A DNA stretch of 29,026 nucleotides, from the IMG/VR virus record IMGVR_UViG_2671180727_000014, positions 1 through 29,026 of that record, one strand, 5' to 3'. Under the pieces are notes generated by a model. It did not search any database, had not been told where the DNA came from, and saw only the letters and a program-made list of their open reading frames with translations. The translations under genes were made by a program, and so were the position numbers. Source of the DNA: a virus. Lineage: Duplodnaviria; Heunggongvirae; Uroviricota; Caudoviricetes. How positions within the stretch are numbered: the stretch's first letter is position 1; each line of letters starts with the position of its first letter. This document shows, piece by piece, positions 11,656 through 29,026 of the stretch.

Positions 11656-11742
11656 TGGCGGAGAGTAATGGAATCGAACCATCATCGCTTGCGCAATGGG
11701 ACGGTTTTCAAGACCGCTTGAGCACCATGCTCCCTACTCTCC
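11656..11742 (-). tRNA. tRNA-Ser (anticodon UGA), long variable arm, CCA encoded
   Basis: Reverse complement GGAGAGT...GCGGT-CTTGAAA-ACCGT...GATGG-TTCGATT-CCATT-ACTCTCC-G-CCA: 7-bp acceptor stem, anticodon loop CU-UGA-AA, T-loop TTCGATT. The D-arm is not fully resolved by hand. Confidence 0.7.
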
Positions 11743-11966
11743 GGCCGTTGTGGTGGCCGGTACTGAATCTCCGGCATACGGTGCAGCCAATTAGGACTAC
11801 GGACGATCACCGCTCGCGAAAGGGAAGATTTGCGGCCGCATTTCCCTAACATCCAAGAAAGCTATCGCATCAGTCTGCGAATCCACCACAACGGTAAGAT
11901 CACTACCTTTCGACCAGTCATTGTGCACATGAACGACGATTAACCGTAATGATCTTATCGTTGTAT

Positions 11967-12042
11967 TGGTGCCGGTTAGCGGACTCGAACCGCTGACATC
12001 CTGCTTACAAGGCAGGCGCTCTACCAACTGAGCTAAACCGGC
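11967..12042 (-). tRNA. tRNA-Thr (anticodon UGU), CCA encoded
   Basis: Reverse complement GCCGGTTTAGCTCAGTTGGTAGAGCGCCTGCCTTGTAAGCAGGATGTCAGCGGTTCGAGTCCGCTAACCGGCACCA: perfect 7-bp acceptor stem, anticodon loop CTTGTAA, T-loop GGTTCGAGTCC. Confidence 0.85.
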
Positions 12043-12046
12043 AATT

Positions 12047-12133
12047 TGGTGGGGAGTGATGGAGTCGAACCACCCGAGTCGCAATGACAGTAGATTTACA
12101 GTCTACCCCGCTGCCCCTACGGACTAACTCCCC
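12047..12133 (-). tRNA. tRNA-Tyr (anticodon GUA), long variable arm, CCA encoded
   Basis: Reverse complement GGGGAGT...GTAGA-CTGTAAA-TCTAC...GGTGG-TTCGACT-CCATC-ACTCCCC-A-CCA. Confidence 0.8.
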
Positions 12134-12138
12134 TAAAT

Positions 12139-12213
12139 TGGCGATGGTGGGTGGATTCGAACCACCGACCAGTTGGTTAACAGCCAACTGCTCTACCGCT
12201 GAGCTACACCATC
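12139..12213 (-). tRNA. tRNA-Asn (anticodon GUU), CCA encoded
   Basis: Reverse complement GATGGTGTAGCTCAGCGGTAGAGCAGTTGGCTGTTAACCAACTGGTCGGTGGTTCGAATCCACCCACCATCGCCA: 7-bp acceptor stem, anticodon loop CTGTTAA. Confidence 0.85.
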
Positions 12214-12406
12214 AATTCAGCACTGCCAGTATTTATTACTCAACAGTGCCAATCGCGACGGTTTAGTTTCTGCCAGGAAACGCACCGCTACTTGCACTTT
12301 TCGTTAGTGCCAGACGCTTTCGACTTCGCTCAATAGTAGAAGGCAAAATCTTTAAGTAGATGATGTTTCTGAGGACAGCACCTACTTTGTAATTTATACA
12401 ATGTGA

Positions 12407-12421
12407 TGTATGGAATCATTT
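12407..12421 (+). repeat. copy of the 15-mer ATGTATGGAATCATT (half-site of the lox-like inverted repeat)
   Basis: Exact 15-mer, also present at 13418-13432 (+), at 9382-9396 (minus orientation), and with one mismatch at 9400-9414. Confidence 0.6.
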
Positions 12422-12478
12422 GTTGTGAAAACAGGCACCAATGGCAACAGTGGTTAAACCTACACAACAATCCTGTCT

Positions 12479-12602
12479 TCACAACGTTGAGGCCACTACT
12501 CCGATTGAATGTTTGCCCAACATGTTACATATCAACGCTCGCCGGTATCTCTGTGAATAGAACCTTAGAATTGATAAAAATGTAATGGCCTCAACGTTGT
12601 GT
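12479..12602. repeat. long-range inverted repeat: 16-nt arms (CACAACGTTGAGGCCA / its complement) separated by about 90 nt in a 780-bp ORF-poor region
   Basis: Read directly: ...cttcacaacgttgaggccact... at 12479-12496 and ...atggcctcaacgttgtgtg... at 12585-12602. Confidence 0.5.
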
Positions 12603-12763
12603 GCTGGCTAACCATACCAGCCGGGCTACGTCGCCGCTTTTTAACCCAGTATAAACGACATAATTGAACAAAATGACGTAACAGGATGGGCGGTCAGTGG
12701 CTAAGAATCCGGGAGTCATATGGAGTTGAAAATATACCAACCGCCCATTCTGTTACTTCATCG

Positions 12764-12787
12764 GAGGGAACATGAATGTTCCCTCCT
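12764..12787. repeat. 24-bp palindrome GGAGGGAACAT-GA-ATGTTCCCTCC
   Basis: Read directly; no flanking U-tract, so it looks more like a protein-binding site or RNA structure than a terminator. Confidence 0.5.
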
Positions 12788-12960
12788 GCGTTCTGCAATC
12801 ACACTCGCTCAGTGTGTCCCATTTCGGTAACGAGGCTGGAAACTGACCTCGCTGGTGTTTGGCTTATTAGGCTACTGCCAGATAGACTTCTTCGTTTGCA
12901 CTTGTATTTAAGTTCAAACAGTCGCGTCTCAACGAAAACAAAGTCATCTTATACATAAAA

Positions 12961-12982
12961 GATAAGTAAGTAAATACTTATC
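12961..12982. promoter_or_regulatory. palindromic site GATAAGTA-AGTAAA-TACTTATC
   Basis: 8-bp inverted repeat arms; member of the dispersed TAAGTA/TACTTA palindrome family. Confidence 0.35.
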
Positions 12983-12991
12983 ATTGTATTT

Positions 12992-13282
12992 TTATTCGGT
13001 TGTGACTTTTTTGATCAAGGCCACTCTACGACTAGGTGTTCTTGTGATGGTGGCAGTGAACCGTTTCGCTTGGATAGTAATGGTTTCGTTCTCCTTAAGT
13101 TGCCCGTAGCGAGTTTCCACCAGGGTGCCAAGACGCCACAGACCATCATCGATACGTTTATGACTAGCAAATTTTATCAGCAACAGTTTTACGACTAACT
13201 GACCTACGTAAAAGGCGAATGCGACTCCGGCCGCTAAGAAATAGGTGGCCAACCACCAGTCCCAAGAAGTTAAATTGCTCAT
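12992..13282 (-). CDS. small membrane protein (96 aa, one N-terminal transmembrane helix)
   Basis: Hydrophobic stretch WLATYFLAAGVAFAFYVGQLVVKLLLI; weak AAGG ribosome-binding site upstream. Confidence 0.45.
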   Translation of the reverse strand: MSNLTSWDWWLATYFLAAGVAFAFYVGQLVVKLLLIKFASHKRIDDGLWRLGTLVETRYGQLKENETITIQAKRFTATITRTPSRRVALIKKVTTE

Positions 13283-13427
13283 TTTCTAACCTTTGTTTCA
13301 TGAACTACCCGATACACACGCTTTCCGATGCACAGTGTTTTGGTTTTAAGTTCCTGCTTAATTAAATCACGACAGATGCCGAAGCCAATAAGGAAGCCAC
13401 CCATAAAAGCTAATGAGATGTATGGAA

Positions 13428-13643
13428 TCATTTTAACGCTCCTGATTCTACTAATTGCTGTAGCAATACTTTCCCTTTATCAGTTAACTGGTAGTTGGCC
13501 GAGCACCACGTTTCAGAAACGTTTGCAACCAACCCTAAACGCTCTAACTTAGCTCGCGTTTTAGGCTTCCAGTACTCAGGGAACTCCGGCCACTTACTGA
13601 TTTCATGAAGCGTTTCTTTCTCCCTTTTACTTAATACGATCAT
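13428..13643 (-). CDS. hypothetical protein (71 aa), translationally coupled to the ligase gene
   Basis: Start ATG overlaps the ligase stop (ATGA overlap); hydrophilic composition. Confidence 0.5.
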   Translation of the reverse strand: MIVLSKREKETLHEISKWPEFPEYWKPKTRAKLERLGLVANVSETWCSANYQLTDKGKVLLQQLVESGALK

Positions 13644-14962
13644 TCTTTATCTCCGATTCGATCTTCGGTATCGCGTAAGCAACGCGGCCATTTCAGTCGT
13701 GGGTGGCGTAAGCTGCCATCAGGTGTTTTCTCGTGACAATGAACCTCGACAATACGACCACGGTACTTCTCTTTGTTGTTCCAGATCTCGTCCAGATATT
13801 TATGCTTAATGCCACTCGCACGAACGATGACGCCGTTTTCAAGACGAATAACAATTTTTCCAAGCGTGTTGGCAAAACCAGAGTCCGGGTCGCCCGGCTC
13901 AAAATCGATAATTTCACCATCTTCTGAATCTTCGTCTTTTAACTTCCACCAGCTGCGGGTACGTTTAAACTCGTAAACAGAGTTCGGATCTTTGCCCATC
14001 TCCCCTTCTTCGTTATCGTCCAGGCGTTTCATGAAGCGTTCGATGAAGTCTTCGTGGCTATGGATGATGTAGAACGGATGTAGGTGAATGTCTTGCGCGT
14101 AGTCTTCACTGCGATCGTTTTTGAACAACGCCACGAGAATAGCCAGGCGCTCTTTCAGCTTCATACCTGTCTTTGCATACTCTTTGGATTTAGCCTGTGC
14201 CCGCCATTCCGGTAGGAAGAAGTCGAAAACATGATAAATAGCGCCAATTGCCTGCACGTTCTTTTTGCGCAATGCAGATACGGACTGGTTAAATGAACCG
14301 GCTGTTCCTTCACCATCGAAGAAGATGTGTTTGTGGCCTGAAAGTTTGCCTAATTCGAGCATGGCTGGCTTTAGGTGATCGAGAGACGTGATTGGATTAC
14401 CAGTACGAGAAAGGAAGTTCACCTCTTCCTCGTCAACAATAACCTCGCAAATTACTCGCAAACCATCGAGCTTAAGGCTGCCAATCATCGGCCATTTTGC
14501 TTTAGGATTTGGCTTGAAGGGGTATTTGTCGCCTTTTTCTTTATACGGTGACGCCAGCTGCACCTCGAATTTCGGAATGGGATTTTCAAAAACCTTGTTG
14601 CATAGGCTAATCCCAACACCCGCTTTCGGGTCTTTTAAGAGGAAACGACGGAACACGTCCTGCCCATCGGCGCACATTGACGCCACGATAGACTCAACAG
14701 CAGCTATTGCTGCGTTCCCCGTCAGCTCGCGAGAGGCCAGCTTATTCAGTACATCAATGGCTTTTTCGTCACTTGGGACGGACTCACTAAGCGGCTCTGC
14801 CACTTTGTATTTCTTTACCCCAAAACGGATGAAAGGGTTGAGCATCAATGAAACCATGCTTTGTTCAAAGTCATCCATGTTGGCCAATGCCTCTTTTTTT
14901 GCATTGGTTCCCATAGCTTTCATTTCGTCCAGCTTATGCTTAAGTGCGATCAACTTTTTCAT
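13640..14962 (-). CDS. ATP-dependent DNA ligase, 440 aa
   Basis: Adenylation motif I KxDGxR present as SLKLDGLRVICEV; size and layout consistent with phage ATP-dependent ligases. Confidence 0.75.
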   Translation of the reverse strand: MKKLIALKHKLDEMKAMGTNAKKEALANMDDFEQSMVSLMLNPFIRFGVKKYKVAEPLSESVPSDEKAIDVLNKLASRELTGNAAIAAVESIVASMCADGQDVFRRFLLKDPKAGVGISLCNKVFENPIPKFEVQLASPYKEKGDKYPFKPNPKAKWPMIGSLKLDGLRVICEVIVDEEEVNFLSRTGNPITSLDHLKPAMLELGKLSGHKHIFFDGEGTAGSFNQSVSALRKKNVQAIGAIYHVFDFFLPEWRAQAKSKEYAKTGMKLKERLAILVALFKNDRSEDYAQDIHLHPFYIIHSHEDFIERFMKRLDDNEEGEMGKDPNSVYEFKRTRSWWKLKDEDSEDGEIIDFEPGDPDSGFANTLGKIVIRLENGVIVRASGIKHKYLDEIWNNKEKYRGRIVEVHCHEKTPDGSLRHPRLKWPRCLRDTEDRIGDKE

Positions 14963-15429
14963 TGTTGTTTTGCCTCCATATGTTGATCGATTTGCTCATG
15001 TGTTTCTTTTGTTGTTTCTTCAATCAACGCCGCATACACGTCAGTGATCGCTGTTTGTGATGTGGCGCTCTTCTTAACCATGCTATTAATCGTTACACTG
15101 TCACGTTTTCGTTTTATAGTTCTGGCTTGTTTATTCCGTTCTTCAACCTCCTTAATGAGTGCGGTCATATCTTCGAAATACAGAGATTCTCCTTTACGAA
15201 TCTCTTCAACCATCATTTTTAACGCCTTGCATTTGCCTGCTTTAATAGCGGTTGCGCACGACTGGAAAGACGTTCGAGGAAGACGGTTTTCTTTGAAGGC
15301 AAGAATGGTGTGCTGGCATACGGAGTAGCTGCAATATGCCGACTCACCGTTTATCTTTACTTCCTCACAACGAAGTGAATAACCGTTATTTCCTGAAATA
15401 GAAGGGACTTTTGACAAATCAGCTTTCAC
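14959..15429 (-). CDS. hypothetical protein with N-terminal Cys cluster, 156 aa
   Basis: ORF; its stop overlaps the ligase start by 4 nt; several Cys residues in the first 70 aa. Confidence 0.5.
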   Translation of the reverse strand: MKADLSKVPSISGNNGYSLRCEEVKINGESAYCSYSVCQHTILAFKENRLPRTSFQSCATAIKAGKCKALKMMVEEIRKGESLYFEDMTALIKEVEERNKQARTIKRKRDSVTINSMVKKSATSQTAITDVYAALIEETTKETHEQIDQHMEAKQQ

Positions 15430-15496
15430 AATTACCGCCAGAAATAATCTTGTGCTTACCTATCATTATTTGCGTAAAAAACGACACACAGAGAGC

Positions 15497-16273
15497 TTAC
15501 CAACTTCCCCAGCTAATCATCTTGCGCTGATCGCTTTCTAAGCGATAGGGGGCAAGAAGCTCTGTGACATGATTGGTGGCGTATGATTTGGCCTCTTGCT
15601 CTATCATCGGTAATTCGTTAGCAATCCTGACCATCTTCCCAGCAAATTCCGCCATTACGCCATCACACGCCTTACCCGCATCAACAATGATATGCACAAG
15701 ATCCAACTGGCTTTTGCACATGTCCCAAAGAGTCGAATATTCGCTCTCCCTGATTAGGTTTACAGCATCATTAGCCCCTTTATTAATCAAAACCTCCAAC
15801 AGGTTTTTCGGGGTAACGAAATCTGCTTTCAGAGATAGTGTCTTTTCACCACTTATCGAACGCAAGTACTCTTCGTAGTTATTCTTCATCAAACCGCTGC
15901 TGCGCATTGCTAGAACTGCTTCTTGAATGGCCGCTTCAATAGTTTCGTCGTTTGAAAGACAAAAAACGGTATTTGTGTAGATCACTTTGCCATCCATCCA
16001 TGCACCAACCTGCACTTTAAGACTGAGCGGGTTTTCTTTGCTAATAAAAACAACTAATGCAGAACGCCGTGCACAAGAAGGTTCACCCCATACGTGTAAC
16101 TCAACTTTCAGATAAGGTAGCCCTGGTAGCGGGATCTCAACCAAACGAGTGGCGATATGATCCATTGCTGTTTTTACCGCTTTTTCAATGATGTCTAGTC
16201 GATTGCTCTCGCTGATTTCTAAACCAGTTTTATCAATGATGTCGCAGGCTAATTTCTGAATTTCGTCTTTCAT
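15497..16273 (-). CDS. hypothetical protein, 258 aa
   Basis: ORF with protein-like composition; palindrome ATAAGTA-ATCATC-TACTTAT upstream at 16314-16334. Confidence 0.55.
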   Translation of the reverse strand: MKDEIQKLACDIIDKTGLEISESNRLDIIEKAVKTAMDHIATRLVEIPLPGLPYLKVELHVWGEPSCARRSALVVFISKENPLSLKVQVGAWMDGKVIYTNTVFCLSNDETIEAAIQEAVLAMRSSGLMKNNYEEYLRSISGEKTLSLKADFVTPKNLLEVLINKGANDAVNLIRESEYSTLWDMCKSQLDLVHIIVDAGKACDGVMAEFAGKMVRIANELPMIEQEAKSYATNHVTELLAPYRLESDQRKMISWGSW

Positions 16274-16313
16274 ACCAACTCCTAGCTAACAGATGAAAGT
16301 ATTCTTACAGAAA

Positions 16314-16334
16314 GATAAGTAATCATCTACTTAT
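16314..16334. promoter_or_regulatory. palindromic site ATAAGTA-ATCATC-TACTTAT upstream of the 258-aa gene
   Basis: Inverted repeat read directly; same TAAGTA/TACTTA family. Confidence 0.35.
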
Positions 16335-16348
16335 TTTAGCGGCACTTG

Positions 16349-17602
16349 TTACGATAGCGCCTTAATGCCCAAAACCTTGCTTTGCAACTCCAACTGTTTG
16401 GTATACGGTTTTGCCCGATAATAGGCTTTGATAATTTGTTCTGGCGTTGCATCGCCTGGGTCGAGTCCTTCCTCGCCCAAACATGCTACTTTGACATTAA
16501 GACCAATACTGGTCAGTCGCCTGGCTGCGGCCATAGTGTTGCGTATAGCTTGCTTTTCACTATCCCACATCATGATCACATTACGTAATCCACGCGCCTT
16601 GAGCGTCAGGAACGCGCCCAACTGATCTTCTGCATCCTGAGTGGTGTTACCAGATAGATGCATCCCGAACGTTCCTATCGGTTCCACGTAATCACGTAAT
16701 GTTTCTTCATCAAAAATAGCTCGTTTAACTCCCATAACATCGAACGCCCCCTCACAGACAACTACAGTCTGTTTGCCGACCGCATTATGGCCGTTGTAGA
16801 GAAACTTACCTGAAGCTGGAAGCTGCATAGGAAAGAGGTAGCGACGTTCAGCTGTACCGGTAATGTCTCGCCCCTGAAATGTCTTCATTACCCCATCCAG
16901 ATCGTAAACCGGTATCAGTATTCGCATATCGAATATCTGTCCTTTAACCTGATCTGTATACGGATCTACATAAGCGTGCTTGCCTTCGACGCAGTATCGT
17001 AGGTCAAAATACTTTGCCATTTCAGGCGATATGTTTCGTTCAACCAGATAGTCTGGAAGACGGCCATCTATAGGAAGTTCGTAATGACGAGGGAGTGCAA
17101 GTGGTCCCTCTAACTCGACTGTGCTTGCAAGCACTATCTCTTCTTTCTTTGGTGCCCACCCCTGGGAAAGAAGGGCGTTCTGCACATATTCCTCGAACTG
17201 TCGTCGTGATTTGCCGCTGTAGTGCTTGAGGAAGACCAGCTTATTGAACTGAATCTCTTCGGGATGATCACCAGCGAAGCATTTACCGACGCCACTGGTC
17301 AGATTGAAATATACCTTCCAGTTGGAGCTGCCACATACCGGACACTCCTTGATATTCACTTCACGACCGCGAGTACTCACGCCTCCACGTCGATAAACGA
17401 TACCTTCAGTATCCAACCATTGTTCAAAATCTAATTCGGTAATTAGCTCTTTCAGCTCGCTCACGATAATTCCACTTTTAACAGGCAATATTGTGACCAA
17501 CCTAAATGTTGATATAACATAAAGGCTCATGTGTTTTTCTTTTGTGGTTTGGCAAAAGAAAAGTTGTTTCACCAATGAATCAAGCGTGGAGGTGTTCTCC
17601 AC
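16349..17602 (-). CDS. DNA primase (zinc-ribbon + TOPRIM, DnaG/T7 gp4-primase-like), 417 aa
   Basis: Zn-binding CPVCGSSNWKVYF...GKCFAGDH; TOPRIM-like VVVCEGAFDVMGV and MMWDSEKQ; directly downstream of the helicase gene. Confidence 0.7.
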   Translation of the reverse strand: MENTSTLDSLVKQLFFCQTTKEKHMSLYVISTFRLVTILPVKSGIIVSELKELITELDFEQWLDTEGIVYRRGGVSTRGREVNIKECPVCGSSNWKVYFNLTSGVGKCFAGDHPEEIQFNKLVFLKHYSGKSRRQFEEYVQNALLSQGWAPKKEEIVLASTVELEGPLALPRHYELPIDGRLPDYLVERNISPEMAKYFDLRYCVEGKHAYVDPYTDQVKGQIFDMRILIPVYDLDGVMKTFQGRDITGTAERRYLFPMQLPASGKFLYNGHNAVGKQTVVVCEGAFDVMGVKRAIFDEETLRDYVEPIGTFGMHLSGNTTQDAEDQLGAFLTLKARGLRNVIMMWDSEKQAIRNTMAAARRLTSIGLNVKVACLGEEGLDPGDATPEQIIKAYYRAKPYTKQLELQSKVLGIKALS

Positions 17603-17611
17603 GCTTATTTT

Positions 17612-18952
17612 TTAGGTAACGTCTAAGATTCGCTCAATGAAGCGCATTTGTTCGAGGTTTTGTTTAACGCGAATGCTGATCCCTCCCTGCTGGTTACGTG
17701 AACCAGCAAAGTAGAGACGAGCCTCTCCTTTCGCTTCTTCTTCTTCGGTTTTGTTGATCGTTATTACCAGGTCAGCAATACGTACTTTTTCGATGTTGTC
17801 GGCAGCGTGCATCATTGTGGCAACTTCTGACGCGCCACCTTCACGGTTTGTCTGCGATGCCGTGATACCAGCAACGTTGTGTTTGTCATAAAGAGCACGT
17901 AAGTCGGTATAGATACTACGTATGTTGGCGCGATCATCACGAAGGTCATAACTGGCACGCATCAAATCTGCATAGTCGACAACAACCATGTCAGGCACCA
18001 TGCCATTGGCTTTCATGCTGTTAAGCATACGATCCAGATCTGCCGGTGACATACTTCCTGACGGACGCTCAACAACCCACAAACTACCAATCCCCTTCGT
18101 GGCTCCCAACTCTGCCAACTTACGATGAACCTCATCGCGCCGTTCCACCAGCTTGGACATTTCTGTCTCCGACAATCTTGCATCAAAACGGTCGGATAAA
18201 ATGGTGGTGTGAACCTCCAGCGAGAGATACAGAACATTGTAGCCAGCAAGCGTTGCGTTTATGGAAAACTCACCCATTGCGGTCGATTTACCGGATTTAG
18301 CGAACCCCATGAAGAGCACCATTTCACGCTTCGCCCAGCCTTTTTGGTACAGCAACCTATCGAGCAGAGGGAGTCCAGTTGTAATGCTGTTTGGCACATA
18401 CTCCTCTGAAGCCTCATATTCACGCGCTTTCAATCGCTCACTTGCGGAGGTGTAGTAGTCATAGATTCCGGTCGCTTCGTTCGATCCAATCTGCTGAACC
18501 TTGGCCATGATTGCCATCGCCCCCTGAAAGTCGCCCTTCTCTTTCAGTTCAGCAGCCTTAATCAGAGCATCATCAAACGCTACGCTTTTTGCGAAGGTTG
18601 ATACCTGGTCAACCATGTACGAGGTATCAGACAATTTTTCTGCAAGGATGCGCTTAAACGCAGCAACAACATCGGCGAATAGTTCCTCACGGATAGTCTT
18701 ATCGCGTTTCGCACGCTTAAGCATATCCAGAACCGCAGATGAAGAGGGCGCGCTCTTGTACATACGGTAATAGCCCGAAACCATATTAACCAATATGGCA
18801 TTGGCCGCATTGGCAAATTGGCTAGGTACAACCAGATCTCCAGCACGAGTAAGAAACTCGTGATCACGACAAAAATAGGCCGTCAATCTGTTCTGAAAAT
18901 CTTCATCAAACTCTTCGGACAGCCCGCGTCCTGTATGGCAAAGTTCGGTCAT
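17612..18952 (-). CDS. DnaB-family replicative helicase, 446 aa
   Basis: C-terminal RecA-like domain with Walker A GFAKSGKST and Walker B-like region VVVDYADLM. Confidence 0.8.
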   Translation of the reverse strand: MTELCHTGRGLSEEFDEDFQNRLTAYFCRDHEFLTRAGDLVVPSQFANAANAILVNMVSGYYRMYKSAPSSSAVLDMLKRAKRDKTIREELFADVVAAFKRILAEKLSDTSYMVDQVSTFAKSVAFDDALIKAAELKEKGDFQGAMAIMAKVQQIGSNEATGIYDYYTSASERLKAREYEASEEYVPNSITTGLPLLDRLLYQKGWAKREMVLFMGFAKSGKSTAMGEFSINATLAGYNVLYLSLEVHTTILSDRFDARLSETEMSKLVERRDEVHRKLAELGATKGIGSLWVVERPSGSMSPADLDRMLNSMKANGMVPDMVVVDYADLMRASYDLRDDRANIRSIYTDLRALYDKHNVAGITASQTNREGGASEVATMMHAADNIEKVRIADLVITINKTEEEEAKGEARLYFAGSRNQQGGISIRVKQNLEQMRFIERILDVT

Positions 18953-21866: not shown

Positions 21867-22184
21867 TGGAGAGTTCCCTTTGCGTATATAATTATCGTCT
21901 GAAACAACTTGTTTTCTTATATGTGATATAGCCTAAATGCCTACGGCTGCGGTGTAAAGGTTAAATGGTAGGTTGTGATTAACAATTGGCAATCATAGCT
22001 TGTATTTGTCTGTTGAAAAAAGTAACAATGACCTCTATATTACAAGTACGGTGATATGCCGTACACAATTTGATAATGCACACGTAATGGGCTATAGCCT
22101 TTTAAAGTAATTTTTGAGTCGAAAACTCAGTTTGAACAGAGGAGATTGATGGCCTTCCTACATCACGGCCATCAGGAGGAATAC

Positions 22185-22454
22185 ATGTCAGCACTAAAAA
22201 AGCAGCGCATCGATTTGAGATTAACCGATGACGATAAAAGCATCATCGAGGAAGCTGCCGCAATGTCTAACCAGAGCATTACTCAGTTTATGGTTAGCAG
22301 TGCATCTGAACGTGCCGTGAAAGTTATAGAGCAACACCGTAGACTAGTTCTGAATGAAGAATCCTGGAATCTGGTTATGGACGCTATAAGCAATCCTCCG
22401 GCACCGAACGACAAGCTGAAACGAGCTGCTGATCGTCTGAAAAGCATGGAGTAG
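22185..22454 (+). CDS. DUF1778-type ribbon-helix-helix antitoxin (TacA/AtaR-like), about 90 aa
   Basis: RIDLRLTDDDKSIIEEAAA...SITQFMVSSASERA and the NPPAPNDKL motif typical of antitoxins paired with GNAT toxins; AGGAGG ribosome-binding site before the ATG at 22185 (ORF track starts at 22146). Confidence 0.75.
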   Translation: MSALKKQRIDLRLTDDDKSIIEEAAAMSNQSITQFMVSSASERAVKVIEQHRRLVLNEESWNLVMDAISNPPAPNDKLKRAADRLKSME

Positions 22455-22461
22455 TTTACTC

Positions 22462-22983
22462 GTGAGCAATACAACGATAGAGATTTTCTCTGGAGAGAAA
22501 GATTATGATCTAAACGGTTTTGATTGCGGCGAAGAGTCACTAAACGCCTTTTTAGCCAACCACTTAAAAAGGCAGCATGAGGGAAAAATTCTTCGTGCTT
22601 ATGTGCTTTGCACTCAAGAAGAAAGGCCAAAAGTGTTAGGATATTACACTTTGTCAGGTAGTTGTTTTGAAAAGGAGTCCTTACCTTCAAGAAGCAAACA
22701 AAAGAAGGTTCCTTATCGGAATGTTCCAAGTGTTACTTTGGGTAGGCTGGCTTTGGACAAGTCCCTTCAAGGTCAAGGATTTGGCTCAATGCTTGTAACA
22801 CATGCAATGCGCGTTGTGTACAATGCATCTCTTGCTGTAGGCATTCATGGACTTTTCGTTGAGGCGTTAAATGACAAAGCCAAGGCGTTTTATAAAAGTT
22901 TAGGCTTTATCCAGCTGGTTGGTAACAACGAGCGTTCTTTGTTCTATCCTACAAAATCTATCGAAAAATTGTTCGAAGAATAA
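22462..22983 (+). CDS. GNAT-family acetyltransferase toxin (TacT/AtaT-like), 173 aa
   Basis: GNAT fold motifs (RLALDKSLQGQGFGSMLV...), start 8 nt after the antitoxin stop; classical antitoxin-then-toxin order. Confidence 0.75.
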   Translation: MSNTTIEIFSGEKDYDLNGFDCGEESLNAFLANHLKRQHEGKILRAYVLCTQEERPKVLGYYTLSGSCFEKESLPSRSKQKKVPYRNVPSVTLGRLALDKSLQGQGFGSMLVTHAMRVVYNASLAVGIHGLFVEALNDKAKAFYKSLGFIQLVGNNERSLFYPTKSIEKLFEE

Positions 22984-23015: not shown

Positions 23016-23231
23016 TCACCAACCACAAACCCTCTCTCCCATCGTATTGTGAAAAAGGATTTGGCGTTCGGTTTCTTCAGTCATTACATCATTATTGCTG
23101 ATATAGATAGGCTCAGCCCCATCGCAGAACAACACGCTGGCTGTTTGTGGTTTAATGACGCACCCACTTATCATACAACTCACGATGAACGGCAGAAGCA
23201 TCTTTCTGACGTATTTTACTGCTCGTCTCAT
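23016..23231 (-). CDS. putative o-spanin (outer-membrane lipoprotein), overlapping the 3' end of the i-spanin gene out of frame
   Basis: Signal peptide with lipobox MLLPFIVSCMISGC; start embedded in the upstream gene as in Rz/Rz1-type overlapped spanins. Confidence 0.4.
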   Translation of the reverse strand: MRRAVKYVRKMLLPFIVSCMISGCVIKPQTASVLFCDGAEPIYISNNDVMTEETERQILFHNTMGERVCGW

Positions 23232-23403
23232 TCACCACTTTCACTGTGTTTTGAAGTCGTTTTCTGTCTTCCTGTTTTGCCTTCTCTTCCATTGCTCGTC
23301 GCGCCGCATTCCCGCCCATCGTGTAAGCGCCGACAAGAACGAAAAGAACGGCAGCCAGCGTAATCAAAGCAACTTTTAGCTTTGTCATCAGGCTGCCTAG
23401 CAT
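23152..23403 (-). CDS. putative i-spanin (N-terminal transmembrane helix, charged periplasmic region), 83 aa
   Basis: LKVALITLAAVLFVLVGAY followed by a charged helical segment (RRAMEEKAKQEDRKRLQ). Confidence 0.45.
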   Translation of the reverse strand: MLGSLMTKLKVALITLAAVLFVLVGAYTMGGNAARRAMEEKAKQEDRKRLQNTVKVVNETSSKIRQKDASAVHRELYDKWVRH

Positions 23404-23404
23404 A

Positions 23405-24124
23405 TTAGACCATCCCTTTCTGGTGTTTTCTTACCTGCGACCAGGCAATGAATCCTGCCACAACAATAGTGGCAATACCGAAGATGATGCGTACTGTATC
23501 CCCGCTAGAGATATGACCTTGTGCTTTATCCATAGCAGCGGAAACCTGCGGCATAACATCGGCCAGCTGCGCCAGACCAATACCTGCTGTAACAGTTGCG
23601 CCTGCGGTTTCTTTAGTTACAGGAACAGCCTTCACGGTTTTCACCGGCTTAACAACGCCAGCTCGACGCAGACCTTCCTCAATAACTTCTGCCGCATACC
23701 AGGTGTTCAGCGTTTTTAGCGGGCCTCGGCCATTCTCGTGGCGAATGATTGCCTCAACCAAAGGTCGAAGGATGTCGTAATCATGCAGATCGATGATCAT
23801 GTCTGCGGTTACACCAACGGCTTTAGACACCTCATTAATGTAGGCGTCAGTATTGTTTTCATTCGGCGGTGCCCAGCGTTCAATAACTTCACGAATGGTA
23901 TCGATACTTGTGCCGTCTTTTGCGCGACGTTTATCGTGGTAGGTAATTAGAGTCACCGCCAGCGCACGAATCCCCCAAACAGGGTCTTTAAACGTGCAAA
24001 AGCGCGGTTCGGCAGGGTTGTCGATTAGCCCCTGCCACGGCGAACCTTTGTCGAGGTTGCCAGGGTTGTTATTACGAATGCCTCTCGGAGTTTTCATCCT
24101 TGATCTCCTGTTATTGCAGTCCAT
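23405..24124 (-). CDS. candidate cell-wall hydrolase (endolysin-position protein) with a C-terminal transmembrane anchor, 239 aa
   Basis: Conserved-looking motifs GIRNNNPGNL...WQG and RWAPPNENNTDAYI; C-terminal hydrophobic helix IIFGIATIVVAGFIAW; located between a holin-like gene and the spanins. Enzymatic class not established. Confidence 0.4.
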   Translation of the reverse strand: MDCNNRRSRMKTPRGIRNNNPGNLDKGSPWQGLIDNPAEPRFCTFKDPVWGIRALAVTLITYHDKRRAKDGTSIDTIREVIERWAPPNENNTDAYINEVSKAVGVTADMIIDLHDYDILRPLVEAIIRHENGRGPLKTLNTWYAAEVIEEGLRRAGVVKPVKTVKAVPVTKETAGATVTAGIGLAQLADVMPQVSAAMDKAQGHISSGDTVRIIFGIATIVVAGFIAWSQVRKHQKGMV

Positions 24125-24446
24125 TCTTCACGCCATAAGCGGCCAGACCCAGCAGCAGCGCGGTAATCAGGAACGACGTTATCTTTGAGATAATGCCGCC
24201 AAAGAACCCGCTGGAGATGGCGTCTAGCCGATTAAGTAGTTTGTCCAGGTTGGAGTGCTGAATGCTGTGTTGCGAAGGCGTCATATCGCCAAAGTAGGCT
24301 TTGAGCTGGTCGTTGACCTCCTGGCCAATTTCCTCACGCAACTCCTTACCTAATTTGCCGACAACTTCACGCGCAACGATAGCGGCAATGCGCTCTACCT
24401 GCTCTGGCGTTACGCCTGCCATCTCGTTCGACATTATTTCCTCCAT
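24111..24446 (-). CDS. holin-position membrane protein (single C-terminal transmembrane helix), 111 aa
   Basis: C-terminal helix ITSFLITALLLGLAAYGV; first gene of the lysis cluster; GGAGG ribosome-binding site upstream of the ATG. Confidence 0.35.
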   Translation of the reverse strand: MEEIMSNEMAGVTPEQVERIAAIVAREVVGKLGKELREEIGQEVNDQLKAYFGDMTPSQHSIQHSNLDKLLNRLDAISSGFFGGIISKITSFLITALLLGLAAYGVKNGLQ

Positions 24447-24495
24447 GAATCGTCAAATCGGGATGGCGGTTTTATATCATAAAACGCCCACACTT

Positions 24496-24512
24496 GGTAG
24501 GTAAGTACTTAC
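24496..24512. promoter_or_regulatory. perfect 12-bp palindrome GTAAGTACTTAC (with flanking GGTAG) upstream of the lysis cluster; a candidate -10 TATGAT lies downstream on the minus strand
   Basis: Read directly, about 55 nt upstream of the holin-like ATG. Confidence 0.4.
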
Positions 24513-25348
24513 ACATGAGCGCCGTAAATTGCCCCAACTTTAGTCCAAGTTGGAGCATTACCAGTAACAGCTTTACCAGCTGCTCCGCCGTTATATTCTG
24601 TACCGTTACCTTGAGTATTACATCTTCCTCCAGCAGCACCGACATTACCACCCGAACCGCCTGTATATGCACTAAGAGACCCCTCACCAACAGATCCTTT
24701 ACCAGGAGCGGAAATAGTACCAGCAGTTGCACCGGAACTCATATGAGAGGAAGACCCACCAGCACCGAATGGGCAACCACCGCCACCACCAAATATTAGT
24801 TTACCCCTGTTACCGCCGCCACCGCCGCCACCACCTCCAGCGATTGCACCATTATTCGTAATACGCAAGCGTGTACCGATGCCATTATTAATTGCGTTAC
24901 CACCAGCAGCACCGGCAGCGTTACTACCACCATTGCCACCGCGTCCATAGACAGTCACACCTGCGTTGATTACAAGGCTGATATAAGAGTTGGTAAGTGA
25001 ACTCGGGAAATCTAAACATGGCACGCCGCTACTGGACGACACCAGATCCCCTGTAATGGTAACAACGACTGGCGTCGCCCCCTGGGATTTTAAATAGTTG
25101 ATCAGTGTGTCTTTGTTGTAGTTATGATTCGCACCGATGCTGTAATGAATTTCCTTAGAACGACCTGCTAACTGAGACATATTCCCAGCAGCAGACAATT
25201 GCACCGCCGTTCGAGCTGCACTCATCCATCTCTGGCCTGTCACACTGACAGCCGAAGACCCAATCCAACCGGGAACACCGACAATTGGCACATCTAATCT
25301 CCTTTTTGATGTGAATATCCTGAATTGGTGAGGGTGGCCCCTCACCAT
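24509..25348 (-). CDS. glycine-rich protein immediately downstream of the tail fiber gene (possible adhesin or tail fiber accessory protein), up to 279 aa
   Basis: Runs such as GRGGNGGSNAAGAAGGN and GGGGGGGGGNRGKLIFGGGGG. An alternative GTG start at about 25291 is preceded by AAGGAG; the annotated ATG at 25348 lies inside a hairpin. Confidence 0.5.
   Translation of the reverse strand: MVRGHPHQFRIFTSKRRLDVPIVGVPGWIGSSAVSVTGQRWMSAARTAVQLSAAGNMSQLAGRSKEIHYSIGANHNYNKDTLINYLKSQGATPVVVTITGDLVSSSSGVPCLDFPSSLTNSYISLVINAGVTVYGRGGNGGSNAAGAAGGNAINNGIGTRLRITNNGAIAGGGGGGGGGNRGKLIFGGGGGCPFGAGGSSSHMSSGATAGTISAPGKGSVGEGSLSAYTGGSGGNVGAAGGRCNTQGNGTEYNGGAAGKAVTGNAPTWTKVGAIYGAHV
25327..25346 (-). other. hairpin (8-bp stem GGTGAGGG / CCCTCACC, loop TGGC) between the tail fiber stop and the glycine-rich gene
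   Basis: Read directly; no U-tract, so it could be an attenuator or translational control structure. Confidence 0.4.
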
Positions 25349-25357
25349 TCACCTTGA

Positions 25358-28300
25358 TTACATTTTTGCCTTCAGTTCGCGCACTTCCTCGCGCAGCTCT
25401 TTGACAGCCTCGACCAACATGCCGATAACGCCGTTGTAGTTAAGACGCAGACGAGGCTCTCCTGACTGATCGTTATGGTCAACCGTTACCAGTTCAGGCT
25501 GAACATTCTGGACGTCCTGAGCGATGAGGCCGCCAGACTGCTCATACCGGTCACAGACCTGAATCTCGTACAGAACACCTTCGATCCGATCCAGCTTGTC
25601 GAGCGCTCGTTCAATCTTGCGAATATTGCGTTTGCTACGACGGTCAGAGCGGATATAAACGTCATTAAAGCTGCCATTACCGCCACAAACCCAAGTACCA
25701 TCATTCTGGAGGTATGCGTTCGCATCCGTGCCGTTTGCGGTACGTGAGTTGTTGATCATGTAAAAACCAAACTGACTGTTTCCCAAGCCACCCAAGAAGA
25801 ATTTGCGATCCGCGTGGTCTTGTCTCAACAACGCTTGTGCAGAGCTTGTACTTACAGCGTTCCTCCCGAAGATGACGTTCTGGTTACGCATATCTATCCA
25901 CGCGCCAGAGCCGCTGTTGATGGAAAAACGGTTGGCGTAAACCCACGCACTTGACGTGATGTCACCCGTTACACTCAACGGCTTAAGGCTTTGCAGCGTG
26001 CTATTAACGAACCTAAAAACATGGGCGCTATTGGCGTAAACATCCAGAATGCCATCTCCGTTCTGTTTAAAGCCGGTGTCATTGTCACCCAGAACAATGG
26101 AATTACCGCCAAGAGCACTGGATGTACCGATGCCCAGTGCACCATTCAATTGACCTCCAGATAATGATAACGCCCCAACATCAGCAGCAGTCGGTTTAAT
26201 GTGCGAACTGTAAATTACATATACAGTTCCATCTGTCAGGCCTGTTGGTTTATTCGCTGTATAAGTTGGTGATGTATGAATCGTTACGCTGGCGTTACTG
26301 GTATAATCCCACTGGATATTAACACCTGTGGCGTAATTACCTATTTCTACATAAATGTCATAGGTATCACCGGATGTATTCACCCATGCAAAATTAGTAA
26401 ATCCAACCGAGGTCCGTCGCCATAATGCACCAGTAATACCTTTGGGGTTCCCATTTCCTGCACGCAGAACCAGCTCAGAGATGCCTGCTTGCTGCGGGGA
26501 GCCAACGTTAAACCCTGCGCCACCAATCAGGCTTATGTAAACCACGGAACTGGCTTGTGGCATGGTTACAGTTGCCAGCTTGAACCATCCGGCACCACCA
26601 CTAAAAGACATTGTTGCTGAGTTGATCGTGCCTATAGACCTTGGAGTTAGCTCAATGTTTTTAGAACCGTCAAACGACACCCCATTTATAGTTCTAGCGG
26701 TTTGTAACTTGGTCGCTGTCGCTGCATTACCGGTTGTGTTCTGGTTACCAGCAATGTTTACACCCGGCAGGTTGATATTGGCGGAGCCATCGAATGACAC
26801 GCCGCCTATTGTGCGTGCTGTTTGCAGTTTTGTTGCAGTTGCAGCATTACCGTTCAAACTACCATTGATGCCGCCAGTAACATTGAGTCCATTACCGATC
26901 GTAACAGCACCGCTGGTATTATTAATTATAATAGGTCGCAAACCGTTCCATGAACCTAATGTGTCTCCTGATGCTGTTAGCATGAAATATGTGTTCGATC
27001 CATCATTACGGATAAAGAATCCATAGTTGCCATAGGCAATGCGCATACCATTCGCCGATTTTGAAATAATCTCGCCAGCAGCAGTTAATCCGCCAGTTAA
27101 CGCTCCTCCAGAAAGCGGTAATGCTCCTACATCAGAAGCTGTTGGTTTGTTTCTAGTGTTATAAGAACGACGCCAGCCTGGTGCATAATCACTCCCATTG
27201 TACACATAAATAAATTCCGCATTATTAACACCACCATGACCTGATGTTGTTGTCGTTGTAACACGAATAGTGTAGTGGCTTGTTGCCTTATTACTAAACA
27301 CCTCAATCACGGAACCAGATAGATCGATCCTACCGCAACCAGTGTCGTCTATATAATTATTGTTGGCGTAAGCCCATGAGCACCGTGCAATCCAATATTT
27401 GTTTGAAAATGCACCCTGATTATTTAGCCAAGTTATAAATTGAGCAGTCGTAAATGCCGTTCCGTTACCACTATTTAACCATCCATCGGCAGCGGTTGGC
27501 GCGTTTATATCAGCCGGCTGAGGCATAAATCCAGTCGTGTAAACCTGCTCCCAACCACTTTCAAAACCATAACCGTCTCTTGAGGAACGGTAGAACAGAC
27601 CACCATTTTTATAGTGAGCTTTAATTTGAAGCGTACGGCAACTACCTACACCGGTATAAAAGTTGGCAAGAATATAACTGTCGCCTGTTCTATTTACATT
27701 GTAAGCACCAGATTCAGCATTCCACGGCACGCCACCATCAGCATCCGCATATGACCCTGTTGCCCTTCTTGCGAAAGCGGCAACATGCGCAGCGGTTAAA
27801 GTGATATCAGTAGAACCATCAAATGGAACACCGGATATTTTTCTTACCGTCTGAAGTTTTGTAGCAGTTGCAGCATTACCAGTGGTGTTCTGATTACCCG
27901 TAGTGTTTACACCTGGAAGGTTAATATTTGCAGAACCGTCGAAAACAACTCCACCGATAGATCTTGCCGTCTGCAATTTCGTTGCTGTACTTGCATTACC
28001 ATTTAATGTTCCGGTGATACCACCAGTAACAGACAACGGACCTGAAACTGTTCCTCCGGTTGTTGGCAGTGCTCCAATATCTAACGGCGTCGGTTTCTGA
28101 TGTGTGCTATACATCGTATAAACAACACCATCGGTAACGCTGGAAGGCTTACTCGCTGAATATGTTGGCGATGTATAAATAGAAACTGACGCATTTGCAG
28201 TACAATCCCAATGGATATTTACACTCGTCGCATAATTGCCAATTTCAACGTAAATATCATATGTATCGCCGGATGTGTTGATCCAGGCGAAATTCGCTAA

Positions 28301-29026
28301 TCCGACAGCTGTACGCTTCCACAAAGCACCTGTAATTCCTTTGGGGTTTCCATTGCCTGCTCGTAGAACCAGTTCTGAAATGCCTGCCTGATGTGGGGAA
28401 CCGACGTTGTAACCAGCGCCACCAATCAATGCGATGTAAACGATGGAACTCGCTTGTGGCATGGTAACCGTAGCCAGTTTGAACCACCCTGCCCCGCCAG
28501 AGAAAGACATCGTTACTGAATTTAAAGTACCAATATCTTTCGGCGTTAATGTGATATCCGCAGTCAGTGCTTTTCCGTTAACTTTTCGGTTAGATGGCAC
28601 CCTGCTATTCGCATTGTCATTGGCTGCTTTAACTGCCTTCGGTGTCGCGGCAAGCGTTTCAGATGTGCTGTTGGTCGCACTGCTGAGCTGTACTATCCCC
28701 TTTTTCGTCGTACTTGCATCCTCAAGCGCCACGGCGGATGCAATATCCTCTGCCCGTTTAGCTGCTGTCTCGGCGCGCGTTGCCGCGGATTCCGCCGTAC
28801 TTTTGCTCTGAGCTGCCGCCGTCGCACTACCAGCTGCCTCTGTCGCCTTCGTGGATGCCGTCGTGGCGCTGCCTTTCGCTGCTGATGCCTGTCTGGTCGC
28901 CTCATCTTTTGAAGCAGACGCAGATGATGCCGATGACGCTGCCGAACTGGCGGACGATGCGGCTGCCGTTTTTGAGGATTCTGCACGGGTTTCCGACGCT
29001 TTCGCGTTCGTTTCGGATGTCTTCGC
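25358..29026 (-). CDS. long tail fiber protein, 5'-truncated by the window end (at least 1222 aa in window), with C-terminal intramolecular chaperone (peptidase S74-like) domain
   Basis: The frame stays open to position 29026; the ORF-track start at 28732 is an internal GTG. Ala/Ser/Thr-rich N-terminal repeats (AKTSETNAKASETRAESSKTAAAS...), then GIVQLSSATNSTSETLAATPKAVKAAND. Fiber repeats NGNAATATKLQTARTIGGVSFDGSANINLPGVN. C-terminal chaperone-like DRRSKRNIRKIERALDKLDRIEGVLYEI...LREEVRELKAKM. Confidence 0.85.
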   Translation of the reverse strand, partial: AKTSETNAKASETRAESSKTAAASSASSAASSASSASASKDEATRQASAAKGSATTASTKATEAAGSATAAAQSKSTAESAATRAETAAKRAEDIASAVALEDASTTKKGIVQLSSATNSTSETLAATPKAVKAANDNANSRVPSNRKVNGKALTADITLTPKDIGTLNSVTMSFSGGAGWFKLATVTMPQASSIVYIALIGGAGYNVGSPHQAGISELVLRAGNGNPKGITGALWKRTAVGLANFAWINTSGDTYDIYVEIGNYATSVNIHWDCTANASVSIYTSPTYSASKPSSVTDGVVYTMYSTHQKPTPLDIGALPTTGGTVSGPLSVTGGITGTLNGNASTATKLQTARSIGGVVFDGSANINLPGVNTTGNQNTTGNAATATKLQTVRKISGVPFDGSTDITLTAAHVAAFARRATGSYADADGGVPWNAESGAYNVNRTGDSYILANFYTGVGSCRTLQIKAHYKNGGLFYRSSRDGYGFESGWEQVYTTGFMPQPADINAPTAADGWLNSGNGTAFTTAQFITWLNNQGAFSNKYWIARCSWAYANNNYIDDTGCGRIDLSGSVIEVFSNKATSHYTIRVTTTTTSGHGGVNNAEFIYVYNGSDYAPGWRRSYNTRNKPTASDVGALPLSGGALTGGLTAAGEIISKSANGMRIAYGNYGFFIRNDGSNTYFMLTASGDTLGSWNGLRPIIINNTSGAVTIGNGLNVTGGINGSLNGNAATATKLQTARTIGGVSFDGSANINLPGVNIAGNQNTTGNAATATKLQTARTINGVSFDGSKNIELTPRSIGTINSATMSFSGGAGWFKLATVTMPQASSVVYISLIGGAGFNVGSPQQAGISELVLRAGNGNPKGITGALWRRTSVGFTNFAWVNTSGDTYDIYVEIGNYATGVNIQWDYTSNASVTIHTSPTYTANKPTGLTDGTVYVIYSSHIKPTAADVGALSLSGGQLNGALGIGTSSALGGNSIVLGDNDTGFKQNGDGILDVYANSAHVFRFVNSTLQSLKPLSVTGDITSSAWVYANRFSINSGSGAWIDMRNQNVIFGRNAVSTSSAQALLRQDHADRKFFLGGLGNSQFGFYMINNSRTANGTDANAYLQNDGTWVCGGNGSFNDVYIRSDRRSKRNIRKIERALDKLDRIEGVLYEIQVCDRYEQSGGLIAQDVQNVQPELVTVDHNDQSGEPRLRLNYNGVIGMLVEAVKELREEVRELKAKM
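26153..26653 (-). repeat. copy B of the duplicated tail fiber module (TPRSIGTINSATMSFSGGAGWFKLATVTMPQASS...TSPTY...ALSLSGG)
   Basis: As for copy A; each copy is adjacent to a pair of ATATKLQT fiber repeats (about 27797-28015 and 26654-26881). Confidence 0.75.
28049..28552 (-). repeat. copy A of a duplicated ~168-aa tail fiber module (TPKDIGTLNSVTMSFSGGAGWFKLATVTMPQASS...TSPTY...ALPTTGG)
   Basis: Aligned by eye to copy B with high amino-acid identity; antisense ORFs in both regions also share peptides, showing nucleotide-level similarity. Confidence 0.75.

Follow-up and report, generated by a model that had tools for sequence, protein, structure and literature searches.

A mosaic tail fiber gene carrying two diverged alleles of one shaft module in an SSU5-like Escherichia coli phage-plasmid

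Introduction

Mosaic tail fiber genes are known in lambdoid phages and in the phages P2, Mu, P1 and the T-even phages (Haggard-Ljungquist 1992; Sandmeier 1992, 1994, as cited in PMC3945230), and a fiber tip composed of a gp37 chaperone and a gp38 cap is known from phages of the T2/S16 type (PDB 6f45). In this study, we analyzed a tail fiber gene at one end of a 29,026-nucleotide stretch of phage DNA (positions 1 to 29,026 of IMG/VR record IMGVR_UViG_2671180727_000014, hereafter the window). The gene is like the known mosaic fibers in being a patchwork shared with unrelated phages, with its junctions at short conserved motifs: its N-terminus and collar are lambdoid Stf-like and other parts match Mu gpS, S', T4 gp34 and S16 gp37. 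It is unlike them in having two alleles of one shaft module, which is rare among the relatives examined, and unlike the invertase-linked mosaic fibers in that no invertase or invertible segment is involved.

Results

The element that carries the fiber gene is an SSU5-like E. coli phage-plasmid. The gene is on the minus strand with its stop codon at 25358-25360, and the window cuts off its 5' end, leaving an open frame of 1,222 codons (25358..29026). Residues are numbered here from the end of the window; the near-identical full-length gene of pLR4-105k encodes 1,484 residues. The visible segments are, in order, an N-terminal Ala/Ser-rich rod, a collar, module copy M1, repeat pair FR1, a central region, a Gp34_trimer domain, repeat pair FR2, module copy M2, a tip and a chaperone. 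Most likely, the gene encodes a long tail fiber that is a ten-segment mosaic and, in kind, an ordinary mosaic fiber.

All segments are given here on the minus strand. The collar (28592..28714, aa 105-145) bears the Phage_fiber_2 motif KGIVQLSSATNSTSETLAATPKAVK (PF03406, 72.6 bits against a cutoff of 22), and this profile matches there only, with no match in the ATATKLQT repeat pairs. M1 (28049..28558, aa 157-326), delimited by self-alignment, is followed by FR1 (27797..28048, aa 327-410), a pair of 40-aa ATATKLQT-type repeats without a Pfam match. The central region (27224..27796, aa 411-601) comprises a gp37_C-like domain (aa 429-518) and a Mu S'-like domain; it is matched by PF12604 (28 bits against a cutoff of 22.5) and by PDB 8ju3, in which the two domains are in swapped order. 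The Gp34_trimer domain (26924..27223, aa 602-701; PF21446, 108 bits) also matches PDB 4uxe (T4 gp34) and 5yvq (Mu gpS), and precedes FR2, the second ATATKLQT-type repeat pair (26645..26878, aa 717-794). M2 (26150..26659, aa 790-959), likewise delimited by self-alignment, is followed by a Mu gpS-like distal tip region (25649..26149, aa 960-1126; PDB 5yvq, E = 2.5e-36). No Pfam or NCBIfam family was matched by the module or by the ATATKLQT repeats, no fiber family was matched by the repeat pairs when scanned alone at E up to 10, and searches of PDB sequences with the whole fiber gave no match over the module.

The full architecture was found in only two of 5,426 E. coli genomes and one phage record, while some part of the fiber gene was matched in 3,870 of those genomes. 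In three independent records (CP053388.1 and two plasmid contigs), the architecture recurs at 97-98% identity and the reading frame is unbroken, and NZ_JCBNXV010000003.1 has 98.3% identity to the window gene over 100% of its length, with the annotation "phage tail fiber protein". As repeated fiber motifs can mislead short-read assemblers, the two-module gene might be suspected of being a chimera mis-assembled across such motifs. Against this stand the three concordant records and the fact that M1 and M2 would not collapse or mis-join, since 29% of their bases differ, and we regard the probability of such an artefact as negligible.

An initial sequence-only reading described a ~168-aa module that is duplicated at high identity ~1.9 kb apart, each copy beside a repeat pair. 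The copies, their spacing and the flanking pairs are all present: M1 and M2 form an ungapped alignment, 633 aa (1,899 nt) apart, over a module length of ~165-170 aa, and the four ATKLQT motifs (aa 348, 388, 731 and 771) form two pairs of 40-aa repeats. However, the high identity holds for protein only, as M1 and M2 share 77.6% of their residues but 70.6% of their bases. Chance was ruled out as a source of the likeness by comparison of the gene with itself using blastn, in which the M1/M2 pair has E = 5e-77. Third codon positions are 42% identical, codons differ at 58% of the identical residues, dN is 0.16-0.19 and dS 1.5-2.3, and the longest in-register exact match is 14 nt. FR1 and FR2 are similarly diverged, with 82% protein and 69% DNA identity, a longest in-register exact run of 10 nt and a dS that is inestimable, being saturated or undefined. 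Comparison of the gene with itself has thus largely returned protein-level similarity with diverged DNA, a pattern named beforehand as one that would count against the initial reading. In addition, the flanking order is mirrored, M1 being followed by FR1 but FR2 by M2, so that the repeated entity is not a single unit of module plus repeats.

The relatives of each copy were determined by comparison of 91 modules, from the window and 88 related loci, of which 29 are M1-type and 62 M2-type. Median nucleotide identity within these classes is 0.96 and 0.91, respectively, and identity between them is 0.675-0.79. M1 is 98.6% nucleotide-identical to single-module fibers (for example those of loci L008, L073, L074 and L084) and M2 is 100% identical to the single-module fiber of L009, when L004, which has the same architecture, and the two-module L016 are set aside. 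M2 is also 93% identical in amino acids to the single-module fiber of Yersinia phage vB_YpM_39, whose M2 locus carries a hin invertase. The M1 class, which is found in lambdoid phi458, always follows a lambdoid N-terminus and collar, whereas M2-class modules come after collar repeats or FR and belong to phages of other types. One module only is present in 85 of the 88 related loci, and both classes occur together only in L001, L004 and L016, with IMG/VR represented by the best 80 of 374 matches.

More widely, the module is matched by 190 cluster representatives from Escherichia, Salmonella, a Yersinia phage and Pseudomonas. The extra matching stretches that suggested many multi-copy proteins proved, upon re-scanning with the module HMM, to be nearly all a ~25-aa C-terminal junction motif. 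Two full modules were present in only two (P0099 and P0143) of the 24 multi-stretch matches re-scanned from the 150 best 50%-identity representatives. P0099 has a true tandem duplication of an M2-containing 317-aa unit, with 346 consecutive identical residues. A separate homology search with the module gave only protein fragments shorter than 300 aa, which were used in the structure alignment and left out of the copy counts.

These comparisons do not support the initial proposal of an internal duplication in this gene, as each copy is nearer to fibers with a single module than to its partner and the order is mirrored. The hallmarks of a recent tandem duplication were absent: the copies are not mutual closest relatives, their dS is high and their internal order is not kept. 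An ancient intragenic duplication of the module, perhaps with the repeats, followed by divergence in place and later export to other phages would accommodate the presence of both copies in one gene, each beside an ATATKLQT pair, and P0099 demonstrates true tandem duplication in the same family. We nonetheless consider such a history unlikely, because the M1-FR1 and FR2-M2 orders are mirrored, the two-module architecture is rare, the two classes occupy different contexts, and FR2, M2 and the first 45 tip residues are shared as a block with other phages. It is instead probable that the gene arose by mosaic assembly, in which two long-diverged alleles of a conserved shaft domain were joined by module shuffling between phages. 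The allele classes must share an ancestor at some depth, and it may have been an intragenic duplication in an ancient fiber that first separated them.

The distribution of homology along the gene is in keeping with its mosaic nature. Of 30 distinct homology endpoints, which are not independent in phylogenetic terms, 22 lie in linkers or repeats, segments that together amount to 23% of the gene, and many are inside FR2 (gene nt 2173-2404). E. coli lambdoid side tail fibers (phi458 and chromosomal prophage Stf) have the N-terminus, collar, M1 and FR1 in common with the window gene at 92-98% protein identity, but the lambdoid side tail fibers L003 and L066-L088 differ from it in having one module each, and L003 also in being without the Tip and IMC segments. 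Intact but different shafts are present in sibling phage-plasmids that have the N-terminus in common, and in three of these the tip, chaperone and gp38 are also the same; the phage-plasmid fiber of L007 has another tip, followed by a tail fiber assembly gene.

The direct repeats had also been proposed to be a hotspot of recombination and deletion that could make fiber length phase-variable. Direct repeats of 0.5 kb and 0.23 kb are indeed present, but no exact direct repeat in the gene exceeds the 17 nt of GGTAATGCTGCAACTGC, which has one copy in FR1b (27864..27880) and one in FR2a (26835..26851), both on the minus strand, 1,029 nt apart and in frame. Its length compares with a mean of 11.5 and a maximum of 16 for the longest direct repeat in 200 codon shuffles. 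For efficient pairing, RecA needs at least 31-34 bp and Red-beta at least 23-27 bp, recombination drops ~100-fold already at 12% divergence, and recombineering works only to roughly 17% divergence (PMC3945230). The exact blocks in the gene (14, 10 and 17 nt) are below those lengths, and the divergence of the modules is 29%. Phage Rad52-like recombinases are more tolerant of divergence than RecA (PMC3945230), which is a point in favor of the modules or repeat pairs being active substrates of homologous recombination. So is the 375-nt M1-M2 spacer of L001 and L016, which is exactly what a crossover between FR1b and FR2a at the 17-nt repeat would give; however, with only ~90% identity to the window gene, neither locus is a direct derivative of it.

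No M1-to-M2 hybrid, the signature of a deletion between the modules, was present among the 91 modules as judged by 36 diagnostic residues, and all three near-identical records retain the full architecture. Small patches mixing both classes in the modules of L081 and L064, and a 113-nt exact run shared by one pair of M1-class and M2-class modules, indicate that the classes recombine occasionally somewhere. There are no inverted repeats in 24000-29026 and no invertase is annotated near the near-identical pLR4-105k gene, so the inverted crossover sites and adjacent invertase of invertible fibers of the Gin, Cin, Min or Hin type are lacking. Taken with the high dS, these results leave the hotspot and phase variation without support, and we judge it very improbable that the modules or repeats undergo frequent deletion. 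Length variants do exist, but between related elements, and they arise by exchange at linker repeats, not between the modules. Rare short-homology deletions at FR1b/FR2a may occur. As the DNA of M1 and M2 is too diverged to support efficient homologous deletion, we expect this genome to maintain the fiber stably and infer a low rate of deletion.

A monomer model, moderate in confidence, predicts that the module is an all-beta sandwich similar to a domain found in tailspike-like proteins, and in a trimeric fiber the module would plausibly form a three-lobed knob. In the model, its fold appears similar to the jelly-roll beta-sandwich of tailspike-like trimers of the WceF type, including Pantoea WceF (PDB 6tgf) and Acinetobacter phage tailspikes (PDB 6c72, 6e1r). 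Judging by the aligned length, the matched WceF domain would be the sandwich. Sequence identity in the structural alignments is 11-12%, too low to demonstrate common descent, and the positions differ in that the module is mid-shaft whereas the tailspike sandwich follows the beta-helix.

A further suggestion was that the two copies provide two receptor-interaction surfaces. Strong purifying selection acts on the module (dN/dS about 0.07-0.11), and within classes its protein identity stays at 92-96% even where the distal tips of the fibers are unrelated, a pattern that is unlike specificity determinants and argues against that suggestion. Moreover, the substitutions between M1 and M2 are not enriched in predicted loops (Fisher p = 0.31), matches to lectins and carbohydrate-binding modules are weak, and a dedicated gp38 adhesin is encoded downstream. 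It is doubtful, then, that the modules are lateral lectin-like receptor-binding knobs conferring two glycan specificities or extra avidity, and the role of the module appears to be structural rather than receptor-binding. An equally slim prospect is that the module represents an undescribed family of lectin-like knobs in enterobacterial fiber shafts, lacking a Pfam or NCBIfam model or solved structure, whose two alleles form two lateral glycan-binding sites or set shaft length relative to O-antigen or capsule thickness, independently of the gp38 tip.

The C-terminal intramolecular chaperone proposed at the outset was confirmed. The Peptidase_S74 segment (25361..25648, minus strand, aa 1127-1222) matches PF13884 over aa 1127-1181 of 1,222 (42.2 bits against a cutoff of 22), and the SDRRSK Ser/Lys motif at its start aligns in register with SDRRIK of phage S16 gp37 (PDB 6f45_A) and with SDERLK of 8jov. 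In characterized members, the conserved Ser and Lys pair at the start of the S74 domain is the cleavage site, and by analogy the window chaperone is predicted to be self-cleaving. Directly downstream is a gene for a gp38-type adhesin, a glycine-rich receptor-recognizing protein (24509..25291, minus strand; PF05268, E = 6.8e-70; PF21721; PDB 6f45_D, E = 1e-46), whose L004 homolog is named "receptor-recognizing protein" in RefSeq. The window gene thus resembles the T2/S16-type tip in its chaperone and in being followed by a gp38 homolog with glycine-rich motifs. It differs in that the host element is a temperate phage-plasmid and in that the shaft upstream of the chaperone is built of lambdoid and Mu-type modules. 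By homology, gp38 would bind the processed fiber tip and set the receptor.

Discussion

Mosaic assembly would proceed from two module alleles circulating separately in lambdoid, Mu-like and phage-plasmid fibers. Segments would be exchanged between phages at short conserved linkers (the collar, the ATATKLQT repeats and the KPTxxDVGALxxxGG junction), and such exchange most likely placed M1 and M2 in one gene. Fiber length and composition would then change only on evolutionary time scales, through exchange with other phages. We infer the direction of these historical events, which is not readable from the data themselves. The divergence between the classes predates the union of M1 and M2, since the same divergence exists between different single-module phages. 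For that reason, a selective explanation, in which synonymous divergence was favored as a guard against deletion, was found unnecessary.

The main value of these results is as a correction: repeats at the protein level in a fiber gene do not on their own imply genetic instability, as the DNA must be examined too. The gene also provides a worked example of fiber construction from interchangeable parts, with short conserved linkers as the joints, and the three linkers named above represent natural splice points useful for the engineering of chimeric fibers. The sibling phage-plasmids indicate, in addition, that different shafts are compatible with the same pair of tip and gp38. Finally, the module is widespread yet uncharacterized, and determination of its structure together with a binding test would fill a small gap in the knowledge of these fibers.

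Architecture of the fiber gene

The tail fiber gene contains two copies, M1 and M2, of a module of ~165–170 residues, each beside a pair of ATATKLQT-type repeats (FR1 and FR2), as the sequence-only reading had correctly located and described. An ungapped protein self-alignment placed the copies at an offset of 633 residues (1,899 nt), and blastn of the gene against itself recovered the pair with an E value of 5e-77, so that chance similarity of M1 and M2 was ruled out. What had been missed is that the segment order, M1-FR1 ... FR2-M2, gives mirrored halves, which are therefore not copies of one unit of module plus repeats.

The reading frame is on the minus strand with its stop at 25358–25360, and because it extends past the right end of the window, where it is open, 1,222 codons are visible and residues are numbered here from that end; the full-length gene in plasmid pLR4-105k (NZ_JCBNXV010000003.1) encodes 1,484 residues. 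Pfam and PDB sequence searches revealed a patchwork of segments. A lambdoid Stf-like rod rich in alanine and serine (residues 1–104) and a collar (105–145; Phage_fiber_2, PF03406) precede M1 (157–326; window 28049–28558, minus strand) and FR1 (327–410; 27797–28048, minus). These are followed by a central region (411–601; 27224–27796, minus), with gp37_C (PF12604) at residues 429–518 and a match to Mu S' (8ju3) across residues 417–634, and by a Gp34_trimer trimerisation domain (602–701) that is also present in Mu gpS (5yvq) and T4 gp34 (4uxe). FR2 (717–794; 26645–26878, minus) and M2 (790–959; 26150–26659, minus) lead to a Mu gpS-like tip (960–1126) and the chaperone (1127–1222). The modules and repeat pairs had no Pfam or PDB match; four ATKLQT motifs, at residues 348, 388, 731 and 771, mark the two pairs of 40-residue repeats. 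The C-terminal chaperone domain that had been proposed is borne out by a Peptidase_S74 match at the gene end, where SDRRSK aligns to SDRRIK of S16 gp37 (6f45). The serine of SDRRSK, the putative cleavage site, is visible residue 1127, equivalent to residue 1389 of the 1,484-residue protein.

In the central region, the domain order is swapped relative to the Mu S/S' chimera (8ju3), with query residues 506–634 aligned to chain residues 201–328 and query residues 417–515 to chain residues 324–422. The matched domain is near the distal end of the Mu chimera chain, whereas its counterpart in the window fiber is mid-shaft.

Gene neighborhood and host element

The next gene downstream of the fiber (24509–25291, minus) encodes a gp38-type glycine-rich adhesin (PF05268, E = 6.8e-70; 6f45 chain D, E = 1e-46); its mechanical ORF start is 25348, and the Pfam match and a RefSeq homolog point to 25291. 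The whole fiber gene is 97–98% identical to that of Escherichia phage CMS-2020a and to two ~106–110 kb E. coli plasmid contigs, and partial matches extend to hundreds of non-mobilizable plasmids of ~110 kb and to Salmonella phage SSU5. Window 98–18952 (minus) encodes DNA polymerase III alpha, AAA_5/CobS-like and CobT-like proteins, a tyrosine integrase, an ATP-dependent ligase, a primase and a DnaB-like helicase. Because these plasmid and SSU5 matches come with a replication gene set, the element fits an SSU5-like phage-plasmid. The T2/S16-type gp38 following an S74-chaperone fiber here belongs to a temperate element of that type, not to a T-even phage.

Between the gp38 gene and a toxin-antitoxin pair are three small ORFs (111, 239 and 83 residues; 23152–24446, minus), whose position suggests a lysis cassette. 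The 111- and 239-residue products had no Pfam match; the latter contains an NNPGNL motif and is hydrophobic in a C-terminal segment. The pair itself, just past these lysis-like genes, comprises a TacA-like antitoxin (22146–22454, plus) and a GNAT-family acetyltransferase toxin (22462–22983, plus), and carries the same RefSeq annotation in the near-identical plasmid pLR4-105k. In Yersinia phage vB_YpM_39, segments resembling the window's central region and Gp34_trimer domain lie on the opposite strand (5984–6850, minus) next to the gene for a hin DNA invertase and a short way downstream of a fiber gene with an M2-type module, and may constitute an invertible alternative fiber end.

Divergence of the two module copies

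The sequence-only reading had also regarded the copies as a recombination hotspot with possible phase-variable fiber length. Its own DNA-level check, when run, revealed similarity that is mainly at the protein level: M1 and M2 are 77.6% identical in protein and 70.6% in DNA, with identities of 80%, 89% and 42% at codon positions 1, 2 and 3, respectively. Codons differ for 58% of the residues identical in both copies, and dN is 0.16–0.19 with dS of 1.5–2.3. FR1 and FR2 share 82% of their residues and 69% of their nucleotides, their dS being too saturated for an estimate. In register, exact identity extends over no more than 14 nt in the modules and 10 nt in the repeat pairs. Across the whole gene, no exact direct repeat exceeds 17 nt; that of this length, GGTAATGCTGCAACTGC, is shared in frame by FR1b and FR2a (single repeats of the two pairs) 1,029 nt apart. 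In codon-shuffled genes the longest repeat averaged 11.5 nt and reached 16 nt at most.

Minimal efficient pairing is 31–34 bp for RecA and 23–27 bp for Red-beta, recombination decreases roughly 100-fold at 12% divergence, and recombineering has been cited as working up to about 17% divergence (De Paepe et al., PMC3945230). At 29% divergence, the repeats are well beyond these limits. No inverted repeats were found in the fiber gene region, and no invertase is annotated adjoining the near-identical gene in pLR4-105k. Rare short-homology deletions may occur in the fiber gene.

Origin of the two copies

The ten segments of the gene were mapped in 88 loci encoding the module, of which 8 came from GenBank/RefSeq and 80 were the best of 374 IMG/VR matches. 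The resulting 91 modules, the window's two included, split cleanly into an M1 class (n = 29) and an M2 class (n = 62), with median nucleotide identities of 0.96 and 0.91 within the respective classes and 0.675–0.79 between them. At 36 diagnostic residues nearly all modules were purely of one class, and none of the 91 was a 5'-M1/3'-M2 hybrid, the product expected from deletion between the copies; this result, together with the DNA divergence and a longest exact repeat of 17 nt, speaks against the hotspot. In the loci examined, M1-class modules are always preceded by a lambdoid N-terminus and collar, and M2-class modules by collar repeats or FR units; the latter class was seen in ~31–36 kb contigs and ~90–100 kb phage-plasmids. 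Both classes occur together in only L004 (the pLR4-105k gene, with the window's architecture), L001 and L016 (each with M1, three FR units and M2) among the 88 loci.

With L004 and L016 set aside, the window's M1 is closest to modules of single-module fibers (98.6% nucleotide identity). Its M2 is 100% identical in nucleotides to that of L009, whose fiber has one module and a different tip, and 93% identical in amino acids to the module of vB_YpM_39. These matches tell against an internal duplication within this gene; duplication and hotspot alike were contradicted by tests that the sequence-only reading had itself named. Since each copy has closer relatives elsewhere and two allele classes exist, the simplest reading is that segment exchange united two old alleles, M1 and M2, in this gene.

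Of 1.84 billion cluster representatives searched, 190 matched the module, and the 24 multi-stretch matches among the best 150 were re-scanned with the module HMM. Two full copies were present in only two of the 24: in P0143 they are 42% identical, and P0099 (791 residues) has a 317-residue tandem unit of M2, Gp34_trimer and two FRs with 346 consecutive identical residues. Such a tandem unit is the picture of a recent duplication, and P0099 is either a true one within this fiber family or a product of misassembly.

Fold and role of the module

No Pfam or NCBIfam model, nor any solved structure by sequence, matched the module. An AlphaFold2 monomer model of M2 (25-sequence alignment; pLDDT 75.5, pTM 0.72) is all-beta with about ten strands. 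In WceF, a 137-residue eight-stranded jelly-roll sandwich follows a triple beta-helix, and each chain of the trimer forms its own (PMC7949094); we infer that this sandwich is the domain matched by the module model. In a trimeric fiber the module could plausibly form a knob with three lobes. The proposal that the copies provide two receptor surfaces is unsupported, as dN/dS is low and the module is common to fibers with unrelated tips, both of which make a structural shaft element more likely than a specificity determinant. Positions at which M1 and M2 differ were not enriched in predicted loops.

Homology breakpoints and fiber length

Homology to other loci starts or stops at about gene nucleotides 315–423, 1016–1212, 1398–1490, 2173–2404, 2837–2907 and 2997–3009. 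The collar, FR1, FR2 and KPTxxDVGALxxxGG junctions, 23% of the gene, hold 22 of 30 distinct endpoints (binomial p = 6e-9, which is only indicative because the endpoints are not independent). The last ~25 module residues (Y..KPTxxDVGALxxxGG; window 26150–26224 and 28049–28123, minus; also residues 621–646) reappear where many unrelated fiber domains of distant proteins end, and look like a universal inter-domain junction and frequent homology breakpoint.

Sibling phage-plasmids keep the N-terminus, and several keep the tip, chaperone and gp38; their shafts differ and all are intact, with stop-to-stop frames of 1,371 to 1,721 codons. The pAMPD1 fiber is without M1 and that of pCPF6 without M2, in L016 other segments follow M2, and the pECOH89 and CT01 plasmid fibers have other distal ends. 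In L001 and L016, the M1-M2 spacing is exactly 375 nt, as a crossover at the 17-nt FR1b/FR2a repeat would leave; both share only about 90% identity with the window gene and are therefore its cousins, not derivatives.

Fiber length varies in this family through exchange at linkers between elements. In our judgment, the window gene is best explained, quite probably, as a mosaic fiber in which a common shaft knob happens to be represented by two alleles. Mosaic fiber genes have been on record since the early 1990s (references 71–74 of PMC3945230), and the window fiber is a rare layout within this familiar kind of gene.
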